A stretch of DNA of 26,266 nt from a virus. Lineage: Duplodnaviria > Caudoviricetes. Each line of letters opens with the position of its first letter. Position 1 is the stretch's first letter. Location of the stretch: positions 1 to 26,266 of IMG/VR virus record IMGVR_UViG_3300020042_001918. One strand, 5' to 3'. Positions 2,165-25,320 of this stretch are shown in pieces. The notes beneath the pieces were generated by a model, which saw only the letters and a list, made by a program, of their open reading frames with translations, did not search any database and was not told the DNA's origin. Both the position numbers and the translations under genes were made by a program.

Positions 2165-3417
2165 ATGGACTTCGGCAAACTCACAGAAGATCAAAAGACC
2201 ACGGCCCGCATGATTGCGGACGAGGCACGAGCAAACTTTGTTGACCCTGAGTTTGCATTGGCTATTGCGTTTAGAGAGAACAGGTTTTTAAATAGGGTCA
2301 ACCCAGACAGCGGCGCTATTGGGCCAATGCAAGTTATGCCGCACAATGCCAAGCCATTGAATATGACGATAGAGGATTTGAATGATCCTCGCATGAACGT
2401 CATTGCTGGTGTACGCATCCTTAAAGAGAATTTAGATCGCTACAAAGGTGATGCCAAGTTATCGGCTATTGCTTACAACTCAAGACCTGTAGTGGCTGAT
2501 CGCTATGCCAAGCATGGTGATGATAGTTTATGCCTAAAGAGACTCAGAACTATTGGCGTGATGTTAACAACTTCAGAGACCTTAGCATCAATGGTTACTT
2601 GCCTGCGCAAGCAGAGGCTCAACAACAACAAAACGGTGTTGATCTTGGTGGTCAACCAGAGCCTTTAGATAACCCCTTACAGCGGTCTAACCTTGGTGAG
2701 AAATATGATCTTGCAAGGTATGCCATATCAGATGCAGAGGGGGGTGTAGACAAGCCCCTGATGACCCTTGGGGGTGCTGGTGTTGGTGTCCTTGCTGGAA
2801 CGGCTGAGACTGGTGGTCGCATGATCGACAAGATTAACCAAACGCTAAATGCAAGCAGAGAGGCTTCTCAGGCAAGTCAGGCACTATCTCAAGGAGTTGA
2901 CCCAAATTCTCCGGGTCAAAAATACAAAAGAAATACTGGCTATGGCCGTGGTAAAGGTTACACCGTAGAAGATGTGGTCACAAACCGTGAGCGTGCAAAA
3001 GGTCATGGGCCAGTAACTACAAAATTGTCTGCTCGCTATGGCGTACCAGAGGCGGGTGAGTCAGTCTTAGATATGTTGCTTCGCAAGAAAAAAGAAGGCG
3101 AAATAATTGCTGAAGAAGCCCTCAAAGAAGCAAGAAGAGCCAATGTAATTAGCAAGACTGGTGCATTGGCTCGCATCCCCATCATTGGCCCAGCCATTGC
3201 TGGCGGCTCGATGGGCTATGACATTGCCGACCTCATTGAACGCTACGAAAAAGGTGACAGAAGTGGTGCAGTCATCCAAGGTATTGGTGCTTTAGGCTCA
3301 GGCTTGGCAATGGTTCCACACCCTCTGACACGCGCCGCTGGCACAGTCATGGGTGCAGGAGCCATCCCTGCGGTAATGCTCAATGATTACCTCAAGAGCC
3401 GAGGCTCAAAGGAGTAG
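2165..3417 (+). CDS. Virion-associated lytic transglycosylase (SLT domain) plus C-terminal Gly/Ala-rich region, split by an apparent -1 frameshift near 2528-2530
   Basis: GAGG RBS before the ATG at 2165. SLT motifs AIAFREN, GAIGPMQVMP and AIAYNS are in ORF 2165..2668. The terminal SLT motif P-x-E-T-x-N-Y (MPKETQNYW) is in the -1 frame ORF starting at 2530, which ends in hydrophobic Gly-rich helices. Confidence 0.8.
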
Positions 3418-3453
3418 AATGCCATTGAGGAGCAGTTGCCACTCTCCTTCTTT

Positions 3454-3478
3454 GCCCCCTTTATTGGGGGCTTTTTTT
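3454..3478 (+). terminator. Rho-independent terminator ending the late operon
   Basis: GCCCCC-TTTATT-GGGGGC stem-loop followed by TTTTTTT, at the convergence of the + and - operons. Confidence 0.85.
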
Positions 3479-3659
3479 ATGCTGATCCACCAGTATGAGA
3501 GAGCAACATCTGGGTCTGAATAAAACTCTCACGAGCCTCCTCAAACCCATCGTCATAGCCTCTCTCATAGGCTTCCCTAAGAGCCTTTTCTATTTCGGTT
3601 TCTGGTTGTTCAGAGCATTCGCCACTTCCCGGTTCATGTCGCTGACAATTTGTACGCAT
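3477..3659 (-). CDS. Small hypothetical protein (start uncertain)
   Basis: C-terminal half (EAYERGYDDGFEEARE) looks like a typical small phage protein and fills the gap to the terminator. The 5' part overlaps the upstream gene by 70 nt. Confidence 0.45.
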   Translation of the reverse strand: MRTNCQRHEPGSGECSEQPETEIEKALREAYERGYDDGFEEARESFIQTQMLLSHTGGSA

Positions 3660-10223: not shown

Positions 10224-10429
10224 GAACAGAAGAAGATGAGGCATTTGATGAGTTGGAGCAATCACTTGGTTGGCGCAAGCGACAGATTGTTCAGCGTCAA
10301 CTAAACACTGAAGAAAACATAGCCCGCAATGAGGTGCTTGAAGAAATAGCCATTGTGTTTGACAAAATGAAATCCTCTGGCGATACAGCCGCATCCTTTG
10401 CGGCATATGTGCGAGGTATGAAAACATGA
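10220..10429 (+). CDS. Hypothetical protein (MRTEEDEAF...)
   Basis: ATGA overlaps at both ends. Confidence 0.7.
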   Translation: MRTEEDEAFDELEQSLGWRKRQIVQRQLNTEENIARNEVLEEIAIVFDKMKSSGDTAASFAAYVRGMKT

Positions 10430-12171
10430 ATTATTTATCCGTGTGTTCAGGCATAGAGGCAGCATCTTGTGCTTGGCATGATCTTGGTTGGAATCCTGTT
10501 GGCTTCTCAGAGATTGAGAAGTTCCCATCAGAAGTGTTGAAACATCATTACCCTTATGTCCCTAATTTGGGTGACATGACTAAATTTAAGGAGTGGAATC
10601 TTGGAACAAATGTCAATGTTTTCGTCGGAGGAACACCTTGCCAGTCGTTCAGTGTCGCCGGACTTAGAAAAGGATTGGATGATCCGCGTGGGAACCTCAT
10701 GCTCACCTATCTTGCAATTGCTGACCGATTTCGCCCCAAGTGGTTGGTTTGGGAGAACGTCCCCGGAGTCTTGTCATCTAACGACGGACAAGATTTTGGC
10801 ACCTTCCTTGGAGGGTTGGGGGAACTCGGGTATGGGTTCGCATACAGAATTCTTGACGCTCAATACTTCGGAGTGGCCCAGAGAAGGCGTCGCGTGTTCG
10901 TTATTGGACACCTTGGAGACTGGCGACCTGCCGCGGCGGTACTTTTTGAGCGCGACAGCTTGCAGAGGAATCCTGCGCCGAGCCGAAAAGCGAGAGAAAG
11001 AACTTCCGGCTTCTTTGAAAGCAGCCTTGCTCAATACCGCGCAGCAGACGTCGGAGGAACTCTCAAAGCAAGCGGAGGAGTCCTTGGAGGAGGAAGCGAA
11101 ACTTTCCTTGCCCAACGAGTTGATGGATCAACAGATGGACGAGGAGTGACTGGACCTTTAATGGCTAGGGACTACAAGGGGGTAGACAACTATGACCACA
11201 CCAAGGTCATCCCTGTGGTCTATGAGAATCACCCTGCGGATAGCCGAATTGAAGAAATGGGTGATGTCTGCTCAACCGTGACATCAAGATGGGGTACAGG
11301 AGGGGGCAATGTTCCATTTGCGACTGCCGCCTTCTCTATCCGAGAGGATGCCCAAGCCAACAACTTCAGTGCAACTGAGTTGGAAGTGGCTACCGCACTA
11401 AAGGCATTGCAACCAAGCGCACAGTCTCACCATGCTCAGACCTTTGTGGCTCAAGTGGACTGCTACCCCATCAGCACTCAGAATGCTTTGGGAAGGGTCA
11501 ATGGACGCGAGGATTGGCCCCTTGGGCTGTTTAATGAGGGTGAGCCATCCCCTACCCTCACCAAAGCCCATGGTCATGCCGTAGCCCTTGCATACAACTT
11601 TTCTCCGGGTAAGGGGGATTTGAAAGATGACATCCATGTCACCCAAACCGATACGAGCAAGACCTTGGATGCAGTAGGCAGCAATCCCAATATGCATCAA
11701 GGTGGCACTGGAGTTGTTCAGCCCAAGGTGTTTTCGTTTGATAGCACCGAGAGCAACTCTATGAAGTCAAGCAACCCTGATAGTGGTTGCCGTGAGGTTG
11801 ACCTCTCCAAGACCTTGGACACTACTCAGCCAAACCCCGCCAAGGGTCAAGGTGGTATTGGCATCTTGCATCCGATTGCCTTTAGTTCCATTGATGATGG
11901 TCGGGATGCAACTGAGGGTCTGTCCCCAACTCTAAGGGTGGGCGGCAACTCAGGAGGCATGATGGGTGTCCAAGCATCAATGGCTGTACGAAGACTCACG
12001 CCAACTGAATGTGAACGTCTTCAGGGCTTCCCTGATGGTTACACGAACATTAAGAAAAACTGTCCTGATGGCCCAAGGTACAAGGCATTAGGCAACTCTA
12101 TGGCGGTGCCTGTAATGAAGTGGATTGGTCAGAGGATTGCTGACTATGAAAAGAATGTAGGGGGCAAATGA
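10426..12171 (+). CDS. dcm: DNA (cytosine-5) methyltransferase with an expanded variable region
   Basis: Motifs I SVCSGIEAA, IV GTPCQSFS, VI ENVPG, VIII QRRRRVF, IX RRLTPTECERLQGFP and X YKALGNSMAVPV. Confidence 0.93.
   Translation: MNYLSVCSGIEAASCAWHDLGWNPVGFSEIEKFPSEVLKHHYPYVPNLGDMTKFKEWNLGTNVNVFVGGTPCQSFSVAGLRKGLDDPRGNLMLTYLAIADRFRPKWLVWENVPGVLSSNDGQDFGTFLGGLGELGYGFAYRILDAQYFGVAQRRRRVFVIGHLGDWRPAAAVLFERDSLQRNPAPSRKARERTSGFFESSLAQYRAADVGGTLKASGGVLGGGSETFLAQRVDGSTDGRGVTGPLMARDYKGVDNYDHTKVIPVVYENHPADSRIEEMGDVCSTVTSRWGTGGGNVPFATAAFSIREDAQANNFSATELEVATALKALQPSAQSHHAQTFVAQVDCYPISTQNALGRVNGREDWPLGLFNEGEPSPTLTKAHGHAVALAYNFSPGKGDLKDDIHVTQTDTSKTLDAVGSNPNMHQGGTGVVQPKVFSFDSTESNSMKSSNPDSGCREVDLSKTLDTTQPNPAKGQGGIGILHPIAFSSIDDGRDATEGLSPTLRVGGNSGGMMGVQASMAVRRLTPTECERLQGFPDGYTNIKKNCPDGPRYKALGNSMAVPVMKWIGQRIADYEKNVGGK
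10601..11149 (+). CDS. Overprinted +1-frame ORF, candidate MTase beta-type polypeptide
   Basis: 182 codons nested in dcm; AAGGAG at 10588-10593 lies 7 nt before TTG 10601; contains the motif IX-like RYFLSATACRGILRR. Confidence 0.6.
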   Translation: MEQMSMFSSEEHLASRSVSPDLEKDWMIRVGTSCSPILQLLTDFAPSGWFGRTSPESCHLTTDKILAPSLEGWGNSGMGSHTEFLTLNTSEWPREGVACSLLDTLETGDLPRRYFLSATACRGILRRAEKREKELPASLKAALLNTAQQTSEELSKQAEESLEEEAKLSLPNELMDQQMDEE

Positions 12172-12474: not shown

Positions 12475-12503
12475 TTGAGTATCGTTTAATTTGATATTAC
12501 ACT
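12475..12503 (+). promoter_or_regulatory. Sigma70-like early promoter
   Basis: TTGAGT-N17-TACACT preceded by T-rich UP-like tracts (12438-12462) and the inverted repeat CTAGG-N7-CCTAG (12421-12437). Confidence 0.6.
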
Positions 12504-12544
12504 AGCATCACCAACACAAATTCAGTTGGGTAACTTAAACAAAA

Positions 12545-12853
12545 GTGAGTAAACAAATGAATGCACCTCTCAACATCTCAGCAGTATCAGTAGACACACT
12601 AGGTACTCTCTTGGCTCAGATTGCTGATCTGACTAAGCAAGCCGACATGATCAAAGACTTCATCAAAGACCAAGCATCTCTAGGGGGTGCAAAGGTTGTA
12701 GAGGGTTCATTGTTCAAGGCAACCTACATTGAGTCCAATAGAAGTTCAGTTGACTACAAGACATTGTGTGCTGATCTTGGCATCACATCAGAGCAAGTTG
12801 CTCAGTACACAAAGACCTCAGCAGTTTTCTCAGTCAAGGTCACATCCAAGTAA
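12545..12853 (+). CDS. Hypothetical early protein (start GTG 12545 or ATG 12557)
   Basis: About 100-aa ORF downstream of the promoter; coiled N-terminus and beta-rich C-terminus. Confidence 0.75.
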   Translation: MSKQMNAPLNISAVSVDTLGTLLAQIADLTKQADMIKDFIKDQASLGGAKVVEGSLFKATYIESNRSSVDYKTLCADLGITSEQVAQYTKTSAVFSVKVTSK

Positions 12854-12860
12854 AGCAACT

Positions 12861-12877
12861 CCCCCCCTCAAGGGGGG
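12861..12877 (+). other. GC hairpin between genes (no U-tract)
   Basis: CCCCCCC-TCAA-GGGGGG; could be an mRNA-stabilising or processing hairpin or a weak terminator. Confidence 0.45.
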
Positions 12878-12912
12878 ATTCAAAACACTTCATAAACTCT
12901 TAGGAAAACAAA

Positions 12913-13410
12913 ATGAACTTCTCAGTAAAAAACATCAAGTCTTTCAATGGTAGAGAGGGTGTTGGCTATTCAGCAACCTTGTATCTTGATGGCAAAAAGT
13001 TTGCAGAAATCTTGGATGATGCAAATGGGGGTGAGGTAGATGTGCATTGCTTTGATGTAGATGCAACCAAAGTCTCAATCAATACTTACATTGGCAAAGA
13101 TGGTGTGCAACATACATGGAATGTGACTCCCAACTATGCCTTGTTGCACAACTATGTAAAGACTTTGCCAAAGTGGAAAAGTTCATTTTGTGATGAGATG
13201 TATGACATGGAAGTAGGCTTGTTTGTAGAAGAGTTGGTCAACAAGATTTTGGAAGAGAAGAAGTTGGCAAAGGCTAAGAAGAAAGGCATTTGCTTCAAAC
13301 TTACTGCTGACAACAAGAATACCTATAGAACTATCAACACACATGACATGGAAGTAGCAGTTAGCTACTTGAACAAGCAGTTTGGTCTTAACTCTTATCA
13401 ATTCATTTAA
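12913..13410 (+). CDS. Hypothetical early protein
   Basis: 165 aa; AGGA RBS; N-terminus GREG..YSATLYLDGKK..DDANGG. Confidence 0.8.
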   Translation: MNFSVKNIKSFNGREGVGYSATLYLDGKKFAEILDDANGGEVDVHCFDVDATKVSINTYIGKDGVQHTWNVTPNYALLHNYVKTLPKWKSSFCDEMYDMEVGLFVEELVNKILEEKKLAKAKKKGICFKLTADNKNTYRTINTHDMEVAVSYLNKQFGLNSYQFI

Positions 13411-13423
13411 GGACAACTTAATC

Positions 13424-13711
13424 ATGTTGACATTTGTAGAAGTATCAGAGTTCAAGCCAAGGGCTAAAAGGGCTGAGTTGACCCAAGACCAAATGCAAGA
13501 TTGGTTCAACAAAGTCAAGCCAACTTCCAATTGGAAGAACCCAATCAAGAAGACTCTTGTTCTTGAGAATGAGGATCAAATTGAAGATGTGATGAAGTCA
13601 ATCACATGGTTTGTAGGGGGGATGACTGATGTTGATGTCATCAAGAGGATGCCTAACTCAGTATCGGTTAGGTTTTGCAATCAAGGTTATTACAACAACA
13701 TAGGAGCATGA
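13424..13711 (+). CDS. Hypothetical early protein
   Basis: AAGGA RBS before ATG 13424; contains NWKNPI and GYYNNIGA. Confidence 0.75.
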   Translation: MLTFVEVSEFKPRAKRAELTQDQMQDWFNKVKPTSNWKNPIKKTLVLENEDQIEDVMKSITWFVGGMTDVDVIKRMPNSVSVRFCNQGYYNNIGA

Positions 13712-14055
13712 GCATGAACACAATCAAGTTAAAAGAGGCTATCAGAGTCATAGCACAAGGGGGGTTTATCAAAAGCCCAAGCAATCACTTTTCAACCTAT
13801 ACAAGCCTTTGTGACAAGGATGGACTCCAAGTAGGTAGGGTGACTCAAGACTGCTACTTTGAGGTCATGGACTGCCTTTATGGGCTATGGAAACATGGTT
13901 GTCAACTTAAGGATGAAGACTTTATGGAAAAGGTCTATCACTATTCCACAATTAAGGGTGACTTCAAGCAACTCAACAAGGTATTGGAGATGGGTGCTTC
14001 AGAGCAAACAATGTATAGGTTTTTAAAACAAAGTGAGGAGTTAGACCATGTCTGA
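13708..14055 (+). CDS. Hypothetical early protein
   Basis: ATGA overlap at 13708 (alternative ATG 13714 with AGGAG RBS). Confidence 0.7.
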   Translation: MSMNTIKLKEAIRVIAQGGFIKSPSNHFSTYTSLCDKDGLQVGRVTQDCYFEVMDCLYGLWKHGCQLKDEDFMEKVYHYSTIKGDFKQLNKVLEMGASEQTMYRFLKQSEELDHV

Positions 14056-14215
14056 AACAATCATGTCAGATTACATCAAGGGGTTCAATGATGGGTATGC
14101 CTATACCCTCAATGAGATAGAGAAACAGATCAAGAATGCCAATAGCCATGATGCTTTGGTCTTAGTACAACTTTTGCAACACCTCAAATTGGAGAAGAAA
14201 AATGACACACTTTGA
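14048..14215 (+). CDS. Small hypothetical protein (55 aa, not in the ORF track)
   Basis: Translated by hand as MSETIMSDYIKGFNDGYAYTLNEIEK...KKNDTL; GAGGAG RBS; fills the operon gap. Confidence 0.7.
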   Translation: MSETIMSDYIKGFNDGYAYTLNEIEKQIKNANSHDALVLVQLLQHLKLEKKNDTL

Positions 14216-14477
14216 AACCATGGATACCATTGTCAAGCAGTTCTTTGATACCTTGCCCAAGGTCAGACTTGCCTATTGTGACTATATTGCTCACATCATC
14301 CAAGGGCATCTCAAGGTCAATGATAGAGAGAAGATGCTCTCAAGTATTGGCATGATCAAGTCTGACAATGATCCTAGTGGCTCATTTGCCTCTACCAAGA
14401 AGACCATCATGGTTGAGGATCGCAATGGCAAGCAGTACAAGATCACTATTGAGGAGGTTGAGGATGAACAGGCATGA
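14202..14477 (+). CDS. Hypothetical early protein
   Basis: 91 aa; GGAG RBS; ends with VEDRNGKQYKITIEEV. Confidence 0.75.
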   Translation: MTHFETMDTIVKQFFDTLPKVRLAYCDYIAHIIQGHLKVNDREKMLSSIGMIKSDNDPSGSFASTKKTIMVEDRNGKQYKITIEEVEDEQA

Positions 14478-14598
14478 GATAGATGAAATGATGAGGGGGC
14501 TGCCTAGCCAACAAGAATATTATGAGGAGTCAATTGGCAACAAAGTGCTAGGGGGCTTGTCATTTATTCTGATTGTCATTACCATATGTTTCATCTAA
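14464..14598 (+). CDS. Small membrane protein (44 aa)
   Basis: GAGGAGG RBS before ATG 14464; C-terminal hydrophobic VLGGLSFILIVITICFI. Confidence 0.65.
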   Translation: MNRHEIDEMMRGLPSQQEYYEESIGNKVLGGLSFILIVITICFI

Positions 14599-16920: not shown

Positions 16921-19900
16921 ATGGGAATCAATAAGATCATTGAGGGCGGTTTGGGCATCATCAAGTCTGCAGGTCGGACTGCCCATGAGCAGGAGGCGGC
17001 CATTCGTGCTGCACAGAATGCCAAGGTTGCCGAGCAGATGGCTAACCTGCCTCCTCGGAATAAGAAGGCAAATGAGGCTTTGGGTCTGTACCATCCTGTG
17101 GGCGGGGGCATCAAGTTGTCTAAGCCAGTGTCTGGGATGCACGCTACGACTGTGCCTGACCCCAAGTTCAAGCCGCCAAAGATTGGGACTATTACCCCTG
17201 AGCAGCTGGTTAAGGAGGAGGCGGCACTGTTTCCTCTCGTTGGTGACCGAGCCGCCGCAGGTCGATACCTAACTCACGTTGGCGAGAACGAACTTGAAGC
17301 GCCTGTTAGGTTGACTGGTGGCCCTCGCTACATGGATGCCAATTACAACCCAATCAACCCTGATGACTCAGCCGCATGGGAGTCAGGACTTAGTCGTGTA
17401 ACCGCGCTTGGGCGTCAGGCTGAACGCGCAGGAGAAGGCGGTCGCCCTGTCTATGGCATTTACACCGCAGGCTCTGGCACAAACACTGACTTCAACATAA
17501 TGGGTGCGAACGCGCTGATTCAACAGATACCTTTTAGCAAGATTACGAAGAAGGCGGAAAAGGCATTTGACCAAGCGATGAGGGCTGGCTCAGAGATGTT
17601 TGCGCCTATACCAAATTGGCCCGGCATCCGTAGCCCATCGGCTCAAGAGATGATCTTAGACAAGAGCAATGGCATTGTTCGCACCAAGTTGTTTGACACA
17701 ATGGGCAAGGAAGAGTTTCAGTCTATGGGCTTTCCAGAAGTCCCAGGCACCCGCAAGGCGATCATTGAACCTGAGTTGCTTGATGTGCCGACGAATCAGG
17801 CGGGCTTTAGGATGGCTAGGATGGACACAAGCGGTCGGATTATTGAAGACCCAATCATCCCTTCCGACTATCCGACTGCATGGGCGGGTCAGGTTGCGGG
17901 TAAGTTAGATCAGCCTGCAGACTTTAAGGATGTATGGCAGACCCACCATGAGGCGCGCCGCCTATTGAACAAACCTGAGTCTGGTGACTACTACTCATTC
18001 TCTCGCGCCCATCCGATCCAGTATGCGGATCAGCAGTGGCTAGACAGGCTGATGCAACAGAGGTTTGCCAATGAACGCAAGATCAAAGAGGGTGAGTACA
18101 AGGATGGCGGTGAGGTTGAGGAGGTTGATATGACTGATGCCGACAAGAAGTTGCACGCCCTCATTGATGGGCATAGGTTCAAGCACTCCATGAAGAGTGG
18201 GGGCAAGGTTGAGAGCAAGATTGAGGGGGATCACCCTGATGCCAAGTTGCACGCCTTGATTGAGACTCGCCGTAAAGAGGTGCGCATGGCTAGTGGTGGT
18301 CAGGCTTTTAAGGCGGCAATGAAGGCTGGCGCAACCGAAGCTAAACCGATTGGGTTTGACAAGGGCGGTGCGGCATTTGGGTTTTTCCCTCAGTTAAAAG
18401 CCAAGAGGTCTAAGCAAGACCCAGAGGCGGCTAAGAATGTGCCTGTTGATGTAGCCCGCGGTGTGGTCTCTGGTGTGCTTGGTGCGCCCGGGGACATTGA
18501 GTCCTTGCTACGCATTCCCTATGATTACCTGCGTTCTCCGACCATGTCTGAGTTGGTGACAGGGGAGAAGAAGAGCAAGACCTTTGCCCCAACGTCTGAG
18601 GACATTGAGAAGAAGTTGCCATTCAAGTCTGACACGCCTGTGAGCCGAGCGGCTACGGGTGCAGGTCAGTTGGCTGGTGGTTTCTACTATGGGCCTGGCT
18701 CTCCGCTCAAGGTGATCGCTAATCTGCCGGGAGCAATCAAGCATGGGGCAACAGAGTTTGCCAAGGCATCAGCTGCTGGCGCATCTCGAGTGATGAAGCC
18801 AGAGGGCGGTAACTGGATACCCGGTGAAGTTGAGAATGCCGTAAAGCATTTAAAACGAAAGACTATTTCTAACTCTGATCCTGCAGAAGTTCTTGAAGAG
18901 TTCAATAAAACTTACACACCCAAAGCACTTGAGGGTATGTATGAAAATTCTAGGCGAGAGATATTGGAATACAAAGACCTTTTGGAGAGGGATGTAGCCC
19001 TTAATAGTTGGGTTGACAATAACTTGTCCAATTACATTAAAAAACAGATGGGAACTGAAAAAGACCCCGTCCGTTTGTTGGCTGATGAGGGCATCACACA
19101 CTACTCTACTGAAGGTGCAATGCGTAATGCAATGAACACTTCATATCAGCAATTTGTAGAAAATAGAAAATTAAGAGGCAAATTGGGTATGCCTGAACAG
19201 CCTTTAGCTAAGACTGATTTGGGTCGCACTTGGGAAGAAGGTATTGATAACATACTTGACCAAGGCAATATGGTTTCAGCCAAACAATTGGAAGGTGGAA
19301 AACTTTACAGAAACAATCCATGGTTGCAAAAACTTCCACCAGATAGCACTTTGTATCGTTTAGATCCAGCTAGTGTTGAGGATATGAACATGATTCATAT
19401 CATGGATGTCTTAAGGGAAGACTTGGCAATAGGTCGGATTAAACCTAGTGATCTCAAGAATTTCAGCATGGATCGTGCGGTTCGTCGCACCCATGAATAC
19501 AACCAAGAAATGGCTAAAAAAGCGGAAGAAGCTACTGCCAAAAAACTTGAGGGCATGACTGTTTACAAGGAATATCCAAATGGCTTTAAGTGGGTGAAGT
19601 TAGAAAAGCCCGGTGATTTTGCTGCTGAGTCTGATGCCATGGGACACTCTGTGCGTGGGTATGAACCTCCTCCGAGACATCCTGATTGGGTAGAGGGGTC
19701 TGGAGATCGAGGCACACCATCCTATGGGTTAGGTGGATGGGAAGCCATTAAGAGTGGCAAAGCCCAAGTCTATTCATTGGTTGACCCCAAAGGTAATCCT
19801 CATGCAACCATTGAGGCAGGAGCCGTTGGTAGACCTCGATATGAAGAGATTAGAAATCATTTTGATGAGGCACATGAACAAGTCGTCAAAGAAATGAAAG

Positions 19901-22900
19901 CGCAGGGTATGGATACAAGTGATCCTACTAAAGCCAATGGATTGGCATGGAAGCGTGCTGAGGAAATTGCTCGTGAACAAGGTTACCAATTTGTCAATCA
20001 AATCAAGGGCAAGGGAAATGACCGCCCAATTAACAAGTATGACCCTTACACCCAAGACTTTGTAACTACTGGCGATTGGACAGAGGTAAGGGACTTGCAA
20101 AACACTGGCTTGAAACTTGTTGGTGAAGCATTCCCTCGAAGGGATGACCAGCTAGGTTTTCAGAAGTTGTTTCCTGAACAAAGGTATGTAACCCCTGATG
20201 AGGTCAATGCTTACAAAACAAAAGCCGATCAAGACTTGATTGATCAATACAAGGATTGGAAGTCTAAGGTTGACTTTGAAGACCCTCAGTTCAAAGACTA
20301 TGAGGGGCCAGAGTTTATTACCAATGAAGAATTTTTCAAGCATTACTTCCCAAATGAGCCTGCCGCTCAAGCCGACTTCATTAGAGGTGGGATGGATAGT
20401 CCATACATGACTCCACCAGAGAGTCTTGGGATGAAAGATTGGGATACCCTAATGAATGAGGGTGTGTTCTCCTATGATGATGTGAGTTTTCTTAACAAGG
20501 TAATGCCTCAGAGGTATCTGACTGCTGAAGATATAGCCAAGGCAAAAGCCCGTTTAGAAGAGCCTCCACTTGCTGAGAAGAATGGTGGAGTTATCCACAT
20601 GAAAAAAGGTGGGGACGATCTTGAGTCTGAGTACAAAGAATTGAGCAAGCCTGCGTTCTACCCAAAAGTAGGAAACATCAAGAGCAAGAACTACAATTCG
20701 CCACAGAACAAACCATTTGTTGATGATCCACGTGCTATGGAAATCCCAGATGTAGATGTGGATGTTCCGACCAAGGAAAACCTTGAGATGAGCAGACGCT
20801 TGGCACAGCGCCAAGGTGAGTTAGAGAAGCAGATTCAGGCTGACAGATCACCCTTGGACAAGTTGGCAGGCACTATTCAAGGCGGTCGCCTTTTAGGTTC
20901 TGCTGTGTTGCAAGGCATCAACTCTATGCCAACGAGATTGGTTCATGGTGACAAGGCAGCTGAAAAGTTCATTCAGGATCGCATCTATAAGCCTACCAAT
21001 GAGTTGGGTGTTGAGTATGCTAGTGATACTGCAAAGTTCCTTGAGGAACTAGAAACCAAGTACAAGTTACCACCCGTTGCAACGGGTGATGTGCTTGGCT
21101 TTGCACCATTGATTCAAGCGGGTGTTGGGCAGGCAGCAAAAGCCGCGGGCAGTGGAACTAAGAAGTTTGCCAAGGCATTGGCTGAGACCGCTGGTGAGAA
21201 GATTGCCATGGGTCAGCCTCTGGTTCCTGGGGTGCCTGCTTCCATAACTAACCCCATGGTCAAGCACATCATCAAGCCAGAGGGTGGTAATTGGCAAAGT
21301 GGCAATAGAAGTGTTGAAAGCAGATTAAAGCCATACAAGCAAGGCGCACATGATGTTAACCCAATGGATGCAGAAGAACTTGGCATTCAGTTATCCCCAC
21401 AAGATGCCGCATTGAACAAGTGGATTGATTCCAACTTGACTAATTACATGAAGAAGCAATTGGGGACAGAGAGCGATCCAATTCGCAAATTGGCTGATGA
21501 GGGCATCACCCACTATGCAGACATGAATGCGATGCGGCGTGACTTAGGTTCTGGATACAACCAAACCGCAGACAATAAAAAGTTACGTCAAAAGTTTGGA
21601 ATGCCTCCATACTCAATTGCTGAAACTCCTATGGGCAAAAGTTGGGAAGAGGGAGTAGATGCTCTTATTGGCAATGAGACCCAATTACTTAGCAAATATG
21701 GAACACAGGCTCGTCTCAAAAAAGACCCTTGGATGGCAAACTTGCCAAAGGACACACCTTTCTATGGTATGCCCCCACGAGGTTTCTATTCTGATTTGGG
21801 TATGAGCCACATCATTGATGTGTTGCGTGAAGATTTGGCAACAGGTCGCATCCGTCCTGAGCAACTGAACAAAGTGTCAATGAGGCAAGCGGTTCAGCGT
21901 AGCCATGAGTACAACCAAGAGATGGCCAAGAAAGCAGAAGTGGCTCAAGCCAAAAAACTTGAGGACATGACAATTTATAAAGAGTACCCTGAAGGGTTTA
22001 GATGGGTGCAATTAGATAAACCCGGGCAGTTTGCAGCTGAATCAGACGCCATGGGGCATTCAGTCCGTGGTTATGAGCCTCCTCAAGGTCACCCTGACTA
22101 TATTCCCGGGTCAGGTAATGCTGGTAGTGAGTCCTATGGTTTGGGTGGGTGGGAAGCTATCAAGAGTGGTGATGCCAAGATTTATTCATTGATTGACAAA
22201 GATAATAAACCCCATGCAACTATTGAAATTGGCAAAGGTAATGATGCTCAAGCCTTTTTTGATGCCCACAAAAATTATTTGGATAATCCTGTAACAAAGC
22301 GTGATTTATCAATGATGGTTGATCCTGATTTGGATATACCACTTAATACGCAGCGCGTAACTGCAATGAAGCAATTGCTTGATGAAATGGGTGTTCAATA
22401 CCGTGATGTGCCTGAAGCCCCACCACACATCAATCAAATTAAAGGCAAAGGAAACCGCACTCCTAATGAGCAATACCTTCCTTATGTTCAAGACTTTGTA
22501 AAGTCAGGCAAATGGAGTCAAGTGAATGACATTGACAATTCTGGCTTGATTGAACATAGTGGTAAATATTTTACAGAGCCTGAACTTATTGAGGCAGCCA
22601 AAAAACATGGACGCATGGGTGTTCAAGATGTTCCATGGGAAGTTGCTCGCCAACGACATATGGAGGCTGGTATTTCTGAAGATGAGGCTTTACGCAATTG
22701 GATTGAAGCATTCAAAGAAGGTCGAGGCAAATTAGACATACCCCCTGAAGGTCAAAAGCGTGGTGGTCTGATCCATATGACTGAAGGTGGCTCACCGCGT
22801 TTGCCCACGAATCTTCACCCAGATGTGCAAGATGCATTAAAAGCTGGGCGCATTACGCCCAATCAAGCCAAGTGGATGAGTAACTATGCAAGGACTGCTG

Positions 22901-25320
22901 GCAATCCAGAGATTGGCACGGCAGGGATTGTTGATGGTATATCTGAAAAGATGATGAACTATAGGAACGCCGTTCGCGCTGGTGAGCATACAAGACCAAG
23001 TTGGATGGAGCCTATTCCCAAAGAGGTGAAGATGCCCAAATGGTTTGATGGCAAGTTAGACTTGGATCGTGAAGGCTTGAGACAACTTGACAAGATACCC
23101 GGTTTGACCAAAAAAGCATTTAATGCAAGTGAATACTCCAACACATTCCCTGCTGGTGTGAATGATGCCAATTACTACAATGAGTTGCTGAAGGCTTCAA
23201 AAGAAGCGCCAGACTATCAACCATACATTGATGAGTTAAATAAACTCAGAGAGCGTAACCAAGATATTGGCAAACAAGATGGTGGTCTGATTCACATGGC
23301 AAGCGGTGGCAGTCCAACAGGTGGACTTCCATCAATGCAAGACACTTTAAAAAATATTCAAAACTACTCTGTGCTTGACCAAGGCACACCTAAAAAGCCA
23401 AATCAATTAAGTGGCGTTGTGTTGTCTGGCGCAAGTTGGCTGGCTGGTGATGAGAAGACCAAACTTGCCAACAAAGCCTTCGGTCAGGATGTAACAAATA
23501 CTGCTGTAGGTGGATACAAAACCGCAGATGTGCTAAACCAACTGAACGTGTTTGAGAGGGATGGCGGAACTTTTGCACCGGGTACGACCGTGGTGTTAGA
23601 CATTGGCGCTAATGACATTGCCACGGGTGTTGACCCTGCTATTACGCGCAGAAACTTAGATGAACTTGTTTCTAGATTGGGAGACAGTGGTGTAGAAATT
23701 ATTATGTCTGCCCAACCGTTTGCAAATTCGTTTCAAGAGGCTATTGACAATCCGAATCTAGTCATGAATGAGATGTATAGCGACATCGCAAGCAACAATC
23801 CACACGTCACCCTTGTTGATGCTATGTCTGGTTTCATGAACCAGAAAGATTTGATGGATGAGTCTCGTTTCCATTTAAAAAGCGACGACTCTAAATTAGC
23901 GTACATCAACAAGTTTGCGGATGCATATAAAGCAAACAATCCAACCACTCAAGTTGAAACGGGCTTGCCAAAAGAGACTGAGCAAATTACCCAGATTGGT
24001 ACGCAATTAGATATTCCCCAAGAGATTGCACAAATCACGCAGACAAGCGTGCCAGAGACTTATTACACGCCAGAGGTTACCTATACACCAGAGGTTATCT
24101 CTACGCCAGCCGTTGTTGAGGCTGAACTTCAGCCCTCTGCTGGCTACACTTATGCACAAAACAATTCAAGCATTGACAACTACTACAACATCATCAATGA
24201 CTATTTAGCGCAAGAGCGCACTCAAGATGAAATCCAAGCCGCGATGGAGCAATACGGCGTAAGTCAAGCAGATGTTGATGCAGCTAGAGGTTCTGGGCCT
24301 GGCAGACTTGAAGAGTCATATGCAACAGAGCAATACAAGCGCGGTGGTATTACTCGCATGGCCCCGGGCGGTTTGATTAAGAACTTGCTCAAGATGACTC
24401 CCAAGGAAGAGGCTTTAGCAAAGTTGCCGCAGATGAAAGCTGAGTCAGCTGCCAAGCAAGCGTTAGAGGCTGAGTACAACAAAGCCATGCGTGAAGTGCC
24501 TTATGACAAGCAGATCACTCTAAAACAGTATGAGGCAAGCAAAAACAAGCCTGCCAAGAAAACTGTATGGCATGGTTCACCACACCATTTCAAGCCTACT
24601 GATAAAAATCCATTGGGAGTCTTTGACCCAACCAAGATTGGAACTGGTGAGGGAACTCAGGCTTTTGGACATGGTCATTACTTAGCAGAGGCTAAAGGTA
24701 ATGCAGAGGGTTACCGCCATATGCTATCGGTTGATCCAAGCCAAGGCTCTGAGAACATTAGGTTTGCAACCTTAGAAAATTTCATGCCCAATGAAGCGCC
24801 AGCAGTTCAAAAGCAGATCAAGGATTTCCTTGATGGCACTGGAAACTATGCTGACTTTGTGCGAGTAATAAAGCAGCAAGGCTCTGATGACTTTAAGAAA
24901 GCCTTGGTGAGCGAAGAGCCAGAGATGTTCAAGGCTGGTGCTTTGTACCAAGTAGAGCTGCCTGAAGAGAAGTTGGCTAGTATGCTTGACTATGACTTGC
25001 CTTGGACTCAGCAGTCTGAAGCTGTTAAAAAAGCAATCAATGTTGAAGGTTTACAGAAGTTTTACAACTCTGAAGACCTGCCCATGTCGCAAATTTTTCA
25101 CCATGCCCATCAGAGTATGACTCCCCCTCAGTTTGCAGAGTTTTTGAGAAGTAAAGGTATACCCGGCATTAAGTACAAGGATGCACAATCGAGGGGTATC
25201 CGAGAGGCGGAAGAGGGTACCCGCAATATCGTTATTTTCCCCGGCAACGAAGACTTGCTGAACATTGTTGGAAAAGAGAAACGTGGCGGCTTAATACACA
25301 CAAGGAAACAATATGCCTGA
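16921..25320 (+). CDS. Giant modular 'polyvalent' protein (2799 aa): two PcfJ-like repeats, SGNH hydrolase and ADP-ribosyltransferase-like domain, separated by GG motifs
   Basis: Uninterrupted 8.4-kb ORF starting 5 nt after the terL stop and overlapping the portal start. Shows an internal duplication, SGNH blocks and WHGS...GHYLAE...GIPGIKY..RNIVIF. Confidence 0.85.
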   Translation: MGINKIIEGGLGIIKSAGRTAHEQEAAIRAAQNAKVAEQMANLPPRNKKANEALGLYHPVGGGIKLSKPVSGMHATTVPDPKFKPPKIGTITPEQLVKEEAALFPLVGDRAAAGRYLTHVGENELEAPVRLTGGPRYMDANYNPINPDDSAAWESGLSRVTALGRQAERAGEGGRPVYGIYTAGSGTNTDFNIMGANALIQQIPFSKITKKAEKAFDQAMRAGSEMFAPIPNWPGIRSPSAQEMILDKSNGIVRTKLFDTMGKEEFQSMGFPEVPGTRKAIIEPELLDVPTNQAGFRMARMDTSGRIIEDPIIPSDYPTAWAGQVAGKLDQPADFKDVWQTHHEARRLLNKPESGDYYSFSRAHPIQYADQQWLDRLMQQRFANERKIKEGEYKDGGEVEEVDMTDADKKLHALIDGHRFKHSMKSGGKVESKIEGDHPDAKLHALIETRRKEVRMASGGQAFKAAMKAGATEAKPIGFDKGGAAFGFFPQLKAKRSKQDPEAAKNVPVDVARGVVSGVLGAPGDIESLLRIPYDYLRSPTMSELVTGEKKSKTFAPTSEDIEKKLPFKSDTPVSRAATGAGQLAGGFYYGPGSPLKVIANLPGAIKHGATEFAKASAAGASRVMKPEGGNWIPGEVENAVKHLKRKTISNSDPAEVLEEFNKTYTPKALEGMYENSRREILEYKDLLERDVALNSWVDNNLSNYIKKQMGTEKDPVRLLADEGITHYSTEGAMRNAMNTSYQQFVENRKLRGKLGMPEQPLAKTDLGRTWEEGIDNILDQGNMVSAKQLEGGKLYRNNPWLQKLPPDSTLYRLDPASVEDMNMIHIMDVLREDLAIGRIKPSDLKNFSMDRAVRRTHEYNQEMAKKAEEATAKKLEGMTVYKEYPNGFKWVKLEKPGDFAAESDAMGHSVRGYEPPPRHPDWVEGSGDRGTPSYGLGGWEAIKSGKAQVYSLVDPKGNPHATIEAGAVGRPRYEEIRNHFDEAHEQVVKEMKAQGMDTSDPTKANGLAWKRAEEIAREQGYQFVNQIKGKGNDRPINKYDPYTQDFVTTGDWTEVRDLQNTGLKLVGEAFPRRDDQLGFQKLFPEQRYVTPDEVNAYKTKADQDLIDQYKDWKSKVDFEDPQFKDYEGPEFITNEEFFKHYFPNEPAAQADFIRGGMDSPYMTPPESLGMKDWDTLMNEGVFSYDDVSFLNKVMPQRYLTAEDIAKAKARLEEPPLAEKNGGVIHMKKGGDDLESEYKELSKPAFYPKVGNIKSKNYNSPQNKPFVDDPRAMEIPDVDVDVPTKENLEMSRRLAQRQGELEKQIQADRSPLDKLAGTIQGGRLLGSAVLQGINSMPTRLVHGDKAAEKFIQDRIYKPTNELGVEYASDTAKFLEELETKYKLPPVATGDVLGFAPLIQAGVGQAAKAAGSGTKKFAKALAETAGEKIAMGQPLVPGVPASITNPMVKHIIKPEGGNWQSGNRSVESRLKPYKQGAHDVNPMDAEELGIQLSPQDAALNKWIDSNLTNYMKKQLGTESDPIRKLADEGITHYADMNAMRRDLGSGYNQTADNKKLRQKFGMPPYSIAETPMGKSWEEGVDALIGNETQLLSKYGTQARLKKDPWMANLPKDTPFYGMPPRGFYSDLGMSHIIDVLREDLATGRIRPEQLNKVSMRQAVQRSHEYNQEMAKKAEVAQAKKLEDMTIYKEYPEGFRWVQLDKPGQFAAESDAMGHSVRGYEPPQGHPDYIPGSGNAGSESYGLGGWEAIKSGDAKIYSLIDKDNKPHATIEIGKGNDAQAFFDAHKNYLDNPVTKRDLSMMVDPDLDIPLNTQRVTAMKQLLDEMGVQYRDVPEAPPHINQIKGKGNRTPNEQYLPYVQDFVKSGKWSQVNDIDNSGLIEHSGKYFTEPELIEAAKKHGRMGVQDVPWEVARQRHMEAGISEDEALRNWIEAFKEGRGKLDIPPEGQKRGGLIHMTEGGSPRLPTNLHPDVQDALKAGRITPNQAKWMSNYARTAGNPEIGTAGIVDGISEKMMNYRNAVRAGEHTRPSWMEPIPKEVKMPKWFDGKLDLDREGLRQLDKIPGLTKKAFNASEYSNTFPAGVNDANYYNELLKASKEAPDYQPYIDELNKLRERNQDIGKQDGGLIHMASGGSPTGGLPSMQDTLKNIQNYSVLDQGTPKKPNQLSGVVLSGASWLAGDEKTKLANKAFGQDVTNTAVGGYKTADVLNQLNVFERDGGTFAPGTTVVLDIGANDIATGVDPAITRRNLDELVSRLGDSGVEIIMSAQPFANSFQEAIDNPNLVMNEMYSDIASNNPHVTLVDAMSGFMNQKDLMDESRFHLKSDDSKLAYINKFADAYKANNPTTQVETGLPKETEQITQIGTQLDIPQEIAQITQTSVPETYYTPEVTYTPEVISTPAVVEAELQPSAGYTYAQNNSSIDNYYNIINDYLAQERTQDEIQAAMEQYGVSQADVDAARGSGPGRLEESYATEQYKRGGITRMAPGGLIKNLLKMTPKEEALAKLPQMKAESAAKQALEAEYNKAMREVPYDKQITLKQYEASKNKPAKKTVWHGSPHHFKPTDKNPLGVFDPTKIGTGEGTQAFGHGHYLAEAKGNAEGYRHMLSVDPSQGSENIRFATLENFMPNEAPAVQKQIKDFLDGTGNYADFVRVIKQQGSDDFKKALVSEEPEMFKAGALYQVELPEEKLASMLDYDLPWTQQSEAVKKAINVEGLQKFYNSEDLPMSQIFHHAHQSMTPPQFAEFLRSKGIPGIKYKDAQSRGIREAEEGTRNIVIFPGNEDLLNIVGKEKRGGLIHTRKQYA

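Follow-up and report, generated by a model that had tools for sequence, protein, structure and literature searches.

M.EcoHK31I was reportedly introduced as an alpha/beta enzyme by Lee, Kam and Shaw in 1995. According to the accessible parts of PMC2836561 and PMC3404938, this E. coli enzyme, which recognizes YGGCCR, is a C5 methyltransferase made of an alpha and a beta chain. The available portions of PMC2836561 state that an alpha stripped of every beta start produced no methylation, that beta is produced from internal starts, and that N-terminal truncations of beta reduced protection from about residue 37 on, with a further drop between residues 69 and 70; in Figure S1 of that paper, motif IX is placed on beta. 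EcoHK31I already provides a known nested two-chain design, of which the phage locus described here would be a core-only variant. In the literature searched, with REBASE and most subscription papers outside the search, no description was found of a core-only beta, of this phage family, or of the hidden frames in phages P1 and Omega, and the accessible parts of PMC2884959, PMC3706429, and PMC11855218 do not mention the hidden frame.

For comparison we used an E. coli stand-in for EcoHK31I (locus L163), an allele from another strain and not from HK31; searching 5426 E. coli genomes with a primer listed in the PMC2836561 supplement gave 81 matching genomes. In agreement with that paper, L163 encodes an alpha of 309 aa and a +1 beta of 176 aa with Met17 and Met26, its gene ends fit the primers of the paper, and it adjoins a NotI-family nuclease.

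A methyltransferase gene with an open +1 frame

The window, i.e., the whole stretch of DNA analyzed, is a virus record of 26,266 bases with a completeness of about 48%. Family profile searches revealed replication genes, RusA, a terminase, and a portal-like gene, and the methyltransferase gene (alpha) sits within the phage replication/RusA gene run. Alpha carries motifs I–X of C5 methyltransferases (PF00145) with the catalytic PC, ENV, and QxRxR, in the order I–VIII, variable region, IX, and X. It could be aligned to M.HhaI over residues 14–172 (motifs I–VIII) and 244–319 (TL, IX, X), and its predicted structure matches M.HaeIII/M.HhaI. No restriction nuclease family was recognized beside alpha in family searches of the flanking ORFs, so that the locus does not correspond to a type II restriction-modification pair recognizing YGGCCR; two small ORFs flanking alpha upstream (85 and 111 aa) gave no family match. 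The features of the locus are as follows:

10426..12171, + strand: alpha, C5 cytosine methyltransferase of 581 aa (PF00145 E = 3e-55, phrog_116 E = 4e-94)
10588..10593, + strand: Shine-Dalgarno-like AAGGAG (alpha codons K55-E56), 7 nt before the TTG of beta
10601..11149, + strand: beta ORF, 182 codons, +1 frame, overlying alpha codons 59–242 (ORF list, homologue conservation)
10636..10641, + strand: alpha motif IV, catalytic Pro-Cys (P71-C72), within the overlap, invariant in the homologue alignment (A4)
10817..10837, + strand: beta W73–G79 (WxNSGMG), predicted strand pairing with alpha 137–142; EcoHK31I beta from W37 on is equivalent
10879..10893, + strand: alpha motif VIII (Q152–R156), overread by the start of the beta core (motif comparison, M.HhaI alignment)
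10901..10993, + strand: beta L101–R131, invariant core (LxDxLE...RYFLS...GILRRA), including LSATACRGIL (profile comparisons)
10997..11029, + strand: beta K133–L143, conserved helix start past the core (homologue alignment, model)
11038..11970, + strand: alpha variable region with seven TL-like repeats (pattern), likely an array of target-recognition modules
11042..11149, + strand: beta acidic tail, variable and unconserved (homologue comparison)
11989..12030, + strand: alpha motif IX (R522–F535), sole motif IX of the locus (M.HhaI alignment, profile comparison)
12079..12129, + strand: alpha motif X (Y552–G568) (alignment)

The TL motif is a mark of target-recognition modules. With seven TL-like modules, this alpha lies within the range of 1–9 seen across 54 alphas with variable regions of 90–518 aa (r = 0.75), and its variable region is likely a module array; residues 192–521, which cover the TL-like repeats, were unfolded in the AlphaFold2 model (pLDDT < 50).

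Some further observations were made on the surroundings. Just 3' of the methyltransferase, CG was nearly absent at 12501–14500 (3 CG vs. 77 GC in 2000 bases), and an ORF of 165 aa at 12913–13410 had zero CG dinucleotides. The most avoided 4-base palindromes in the window (1–26266) were AGCT (O/E 0.28), GGCC (0.31), and CCGG (0.57), possibly representing host restriction sites or targets of alpha. An ORF of 2799 aa at 16921–25320, between the terminase large subunit and the portal-like gene, revealed a GDSL-like domain at residues 2183–2319 as its single Pfam match, and the GC content drops from about 0.54 to 0.45 near position 18,500.

As the sequence-only reading had noted, a +1-frame ORF of 182 codons lies within alpha at 10601–11149, preceded at 10588–10593 by AAGGAG 7 nt ahead of its TTG; further in-frame ATGs follow at beta codons 4 and 6. 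The overlap spans motifs IV–VIII, as claimed, and extends about 80 codons past motif VIII. Its noted richness in CG was borne out as well, with 40 CG in 549 nt (O/E 1.03) against 27 in the 1197 nt of alpha on its two sides (O/E 0.14 and 0.39; p = 1.3e-6 by Fisher test), and in 49 of 53 homologues CG O/E was greater inside the overlap than outside. Twenty-two of the 40 CGs in the overlap straddle alpha codon boundaries, i.e., they are NCG codons of beta. When alpha was recoded synonymously 20,000 times, 8.0 +/- 2.2 stops were expected in the beta stretch (P(0) = 5e-5), and a stop-free run of 182 codons occurred anywhere in the alpha gene in 0.1% of the recodings.

Conservation of the overlapping frame

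Homologues were the best 80 of 596 viral loci, selected by alpha rather than by beta. In all 80 of them the +1 frame was open over 155–189 codons, compared with merely 14–84 for the +2 frame. The stop avoidance that the sequence-only reading had asked to see in homologues was found: the +1 frame contained 7 stops in 7806 codons inside the overlap vs. 292 in 5665 outside, counts that are not independent events as the loci are kin, and the +2 frame showed 403 stops inside the overlap. A Shine-Dalgarno-like site lay at the same place, 4–12 nt ahead of a TTG, ATG, or GTG start, in 76 of these best 80 of 596 loci; it overlies the conserved alpha K55-E56, which weakens the argument from start conservation.

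Constraint at synonymous sites, likewise proposed beforehand, was pronounced. Among 54 non-redundant sequences of 76 complete alphas, diversity at four-fold third positions was 0.26 in alpha codons 59–205, whereas the conserved parts on either side had 0.61 and 0.64 (p = 8e-16), and the edges of the low-diversity stretch coincide with the beta start and the end of the conserved part of beta. Over alpha 166–205, the +1 frame was better conserved than alpha itself (0.70 vs. 0.59), with synonymous shares of 0.63 vs. 0.37. Stop avoidance, synonymous constraint, and a conserved start in homologues together mark an overprinted gene, and on this comparative sequence evidence beta is one that is kept by selection. 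A chance ORF was ruled out by the recodings, the open frame in homologues, and the stop avoidance.

In the protein collection, 1281 of 1414 candidates were relatives of beta, and beta matched 141 phage and 530 plasmid records. Its sole family match was PHROG 16143, which is labeled DNA methyltransferase; Pfam and NCBIfam gave none. Searches of the Atlas with beta returned unnamed viral clusters only, and PDB sequence searches with beta profiles gave no meaningful match, the core profile finding no chain at E <= 10.

Motif IX and the core of beta

Homology between this beta and that of M.EcoHK31I, which had been put up for checking by alignment, was confirmed with L163: 31 of 96 residues were identical (32%; E = 5e-10) over L163 residues 11–105, a further comparison gave 97% probability, and the alphas share 38% identity over 241 aa. 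Beyond this relationship, the sequence-only reading had taken the LSATACRGIL of beta for a second motif IX, aligned with the LTPTECERLQ of alpha, and this did not hold. The two segments share 3 identities with a BLOSUM score of 15, which was equaled by 39% of 5000 shuffled betas (P = 0.39). A profile comparison in which the beta core was tried as motif IX against that of alpha failed as well (E = 0.57; 165 of 200 column shuffles scored as high). In L163 beta, motif IX corresponds to residues 149–172, of which 14 of 24 are identical to motif IX of the present alpha, and LSATACRGIL aligns with residues 79–88, about 60 residues short of it. At the motif IX position of the EcoHK31I type, this beta has its acidic tail instead, and no motif IX was seen in the alignment of L163 alpha. 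Judged from these alignments, the present beta is without a motif IX. Motifs IX and X of alpha are intact, as had been stated, yet this is not the unusual situation it was thought to be, as 76 of 76 uncut alpha-selected homologues have both.

For the question of what the core resembles, 65 PF00145-selected genome loci gave 54 distinct rows (4 missed, 7 duplicates). Forty-five of them were conventional enzymes without a +1 core; the remaining nine were beta-type rows from seven genes (L180 and L182 duplicate L175 and L172), all from genomes chosen for beta. The core was compared by hhalign with whole-chain profiles of seven clusters of at least two members each. Its best match was a LxxIL..V..KY.L segment about 30 residues past motif VIII in a 9-member HhaI/Dcm-like cluster (E = 5e-5; with an insertion-free master E = 1.1e-5, 82%; 0 of 200 column shuffles in either case). 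This match is weak and spans a short stretch of 31 columns. One of the seven clusters (9 of the 45 conventional enzymes) showed it clearly, with E = 0.007 in a 3-member cluster and E >= 0.11 in the other five, and judging by these profiles many single-chain enzymes show no recognizable copy of the segment. The likeness could also be convergent. In M.HhaI the segment aligns with residues c. 192–208, at the start of the small domain in the M.HhaI structure. According to the accessible text of PMC3404938, the small domain of C5 methyltransferases contains the variable region and motif IX. No match to this segment was found in the alpha profile (E = 0.18).

The position of the core was constant, and that of motifs IX and X varied. 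Motif VIII was overlain by the core in +1 at all 80 alpha-selected loci (best 80 of 596) and at all 80 beta-selected loci from bacterial genomes; in the latter, motifs IX and X were both on alpha in 63 and motif IX was on beta in none. Among 80 loci selected with protein P0196, the core was present in 76, with IX and X on alpha in 46, both on beta in 17, IX only on beta in one, and IX/X on another ORF in 12, a label that is uncertain for nine of these 12, where motif IV was not detected. From the equivalent of about 11042 onwards, the beta frame of other loci continues into motif IX (EcoHK31I type) or into a target-recognition domain (TRD), IX, and X, and 98 of the 104 longer core-bearing proteins lacked motif IV by pattern, most of these ending in IX and X.

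Protein P0194 (635 aa) was the only single-chain form found, running from motifs I–VIII over the core and TL modules to IX and X; it is a single record from a 2.3-kb contig, available as protein sequence only. Among 59 distinct phage methyltransferases of this subfamily (from 67 parsed of a further 80 loci, for which the query was itself a subfamily member), the core was in +1 in 57 and in cis in none, so that no second in-cis relative turned up in this set. A viral search with P0147 returned no locus, and locus L300 was excluded from the analyses. Some proteins in the collection (P0176, P0217, P0138) are chimeras that switch frame; of these, P0176 and P0217 lack motif VIII and could represent errors or dead genes.

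Some loci stood apart. In P0196-type phage loci (P0196, P0217, L212–L291), the beta-TRD-IX-X chain can run into a second copy of motifs I–II (SLFDGIGG...WASEIE), which suggests a circularly permuted or duplicated N-terminus. Three loci (L207 in genome G064, L298, and L305) encode short C5 methyltransferases, and L207 has an open +1 frame of 304 codons without a match to the beta core, possibly another two-frame family.

Hidden frames were also present in well-known phages. In P1, an unannotated +1 ORF of 162 codons with a core match lies within dmt (2216–2704 of locus L082, AF234172), and by match the ORF also occurs in hundreds of P1-like plasmids. Genes 127–128 of mycobacteriophage Omega (2194–3498 of locus L081) make up three pieces, namely gp127 with motifs I–VIII, a hidden beta of 157 codons, and gp128 with TL modules, IX, and X; a 171-codon ORF overlaps gp128 as well. 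An unannotated beta copy likewise occurs in Pan4.

Finally, a complex of alpha (581 aa) with beta 1–150 was modeled using a 48-row alignment for each chain from the same loci. The predicted complex scored 0.82, the best of three controls 0.00. Of 157 solved complexes, 116 attained the mark used, as did 2 of 215 mismatched pairs; for halves of split enzymes, resemblance to single-chain folds of known structure can lift this score. Runs shared at least 56% of contacts, and partner pLDDT was at least 69 vs. 36 beside an unrelated protein. Beta 75–79 was placed antiparallel to alpha 137–142, with further contacts to alpha 165–188, 518–532, and 566–578. Shared nucleotides build in covariation near alpha i/beta i-58; the top strand contact (alpha 137–beta 79) crosses this diagonal, and the contacts to motifs IX and X fall outside the overlap. 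The model supports binding of beta to alpha. Folded alone, beta reached a pLDDT of 57, was mostly unfolded before residue 100, and gave no fold match.

A two-chain reading and its relation to known systems

Taken together, we favor, with a probability of roughly 0.65, that the locus encodes a two-chain C5 methyltransferase in which beta would be a required structural subunit supplying the post-motif-VIII segment in trans, as the profiles and the modeled complex suggest. Ribosomes would start internally at AAGGAG/TTG to give beta, which would fold on alpha by pairing a strand with alpha 137–142 and touching 165–188, motif IX (518–532), and the motif X helix. It would likely provide the segment just past motif VIII that serves single-chain enzymes as stalk and small-domain scaffold, and alpha without beta would be inactive or nearly so. 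The enzyme may serve as an orphan, probably multi-specific methyltransferase shielding phage DNA from host restriction, the seven TL-like modules hinting more faintly at several specificities. For this reading speak the constant core in +1 over motif VIII with variable placement of IX/X (alpha, beta, third ORF), and a segment that is undetectable in alpha but encoded in +1 in 57 of 59 phage enzymes and in cis in P0194. Against it, the need of EcoHK31I for beta could stem entirely from motif IX, of which the present alpha has its own, and the core match is short, weak, and absent from five clusters. The truncation positions 37 and 69/70 of EcoHK31I beta correspond in the alignment to W73 and L105-E106 of this beta. 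The core matters for assembly in EcoHK31I, yet because the EcoHK31I beta also bears motif IX, the truncation data are silent on a core-only beta and are no demonstration that it is required here.

Another way to account for the conserved beta is that it is an accessory modulator, with alpha working alone and beta tuning its activity, stability, or choice of TL module. Alpha holds all ten motifs, seven TL-like modules are present, and a modulator would need the predicted binding (0.82 vs. 0.00 for the control) just as much. We nevertheless consider this unlikely, as the core was lost in 0 of the 80 alpha-selected homologues (best 80 of 596), where an optional part should sometimes vanish, and beta is not a second motif IX. 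In its specific form, the earlier proposal that beta changes which target-recognition domain is engaged found no support: the core is kept with one or nine TL-like modules, and the EcoHK31I type has it too, while in the predicted interface the variable region hardly figures, with only two of its residues (206 and 229) named. A separate job for beta, e.g., in anti-restriction or host interaction, with the DNA merely shared, would fit a protein without a Pfam or NCBIfam family whose Atlas clusters are unnamed and whose N-terminal 100 residues were unfolded in the lone model. Homology to a proven methyltransferase subunit, fusion of the core to TRD, IX, and X in 17 loci and in most of the 104 longer relatives, and the DNA methyltransferase label of PHROG 16143 make it quite improbable.

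Two further readings concern how, or whether, the frame is translated. Ribosomal frameshifting from alpha, in place of an own start, is brought to mind by the frame-switched chimeras P0176, P0217, and P0138 and by the weak TTG, but it is still less probable than a separate job: the Shine-Dalgarno site and start keep one position in 76 of 80 homologues (best 80 of 596) with TTG, ATG, and GTG exchanged, synonymous constraint begins exactly at the beta start codon, a shift there would lose the catalytic motifs, and the EcoHK31I beta arises from internal starts (PMC2836561, accessible parts). Least probable of all is an untranslated frame whose constraint derives from the codons of alpha itself or from some element in the DNA or RNA. 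The Shine-Dalgarno site does coincide with the conserved alpha K55-E56, but only the +1 frame avoids stops, its variation is of the synonymous type where alpha relaxes, and loci as distant as those of P1, Omega, gut phages, and E. coli still have the core.

Returning to the two-chain enzyme with beta as a structural subunit, downstream frame switches likely moved IX, or TRD, IX, and X, between the chains in relatives because the core is fixed over motifs VII–VIII while the downstream DNA is free; EcoHK31I would be one such arrangement. More tentatively, at somewhat less than even odds, we propose that a large phage/prophage clade, P1 Dmt included, moved a structural segment off the main chain and rewrote it in +1 over motifs VII–VIII. 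The overlap would then serve this segment and not motif IX, leaving the downstream DNA free for gain and loss of modules and for hand-over of IX and X; EcoHK31I would be derived, and the annotated alphas would be incomplete without the missed protein. The sole proven case, EcoHK31I, in which beta supplies motif IX, would thereby become a single arrangement within a wide family whose betas have something other than motif IX as their constant part. On this reading, many phage methyltransferases in the annotations should depend on an overlapping protein that is itself unannotated, and recoded or codon-optimized clones would lose activity. A long same-strand overlap across the active-site motifs of an enzyme could be tested cheaply with P1 dmt or the present gene in E. 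coli.

Compared with known systems, the locus is closest to EcoHK31I. In both, beta is wholly nested in the +1 frame of alpha over motifs VI–VIII, with the same offset as in L163, and both betas contain WxNSGM and LxxxLE. While EcoHK31I has motif IX at the beta C-terminus and none in alpha, here IX and X are on alpha and beta has the core only; beta starts at alpha codon 59 here, 45 alpha codons earlier than in EcoHK31I (codon 104); and this alpha has seven TL-like modules and no recognized neighboring nuclease, in contrast to the NotI-family nuclease beside the EcoHK31I-type L163. P1 Dmt and Omega gp127 resemble the locus in their unannotated +1 ORF with the core, but P1 Dmt is fused to a Dam-type domain, and in Omega a third gene encodes IX and X, neither of which applies here. 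The AquI type is also a two-chain C5 enzyme, and relatives with TRD, IX, and X on beta (17 of the 80 P0196-selected loci) split the motifs alike. The present beta is without TRD, IX, and X, unlike an AquI-type beta, which carries the distal variable region, IX, and X; the AquI genes are not known to be deeply nested. HhaI/Dcm-like single-chain enzymes share the catalytic fold and motif order of alpha and have a post-motif-VIII segment resembling the beta core; they carry this segment in cis and have no +1 core. Lastly, the multispecific C5 methyltransferases of temperate Bacillus phages have, according to the accessible parts of PMC12707154, arrays of target-recognition domains. The present alpha is likewise an orphan phage enzyme, with TL-like repeats between motifs VIII and IX that vary in number among relatives and are putative recognition modules. 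The Bacillus phage enzymes are described as single polypeptides.
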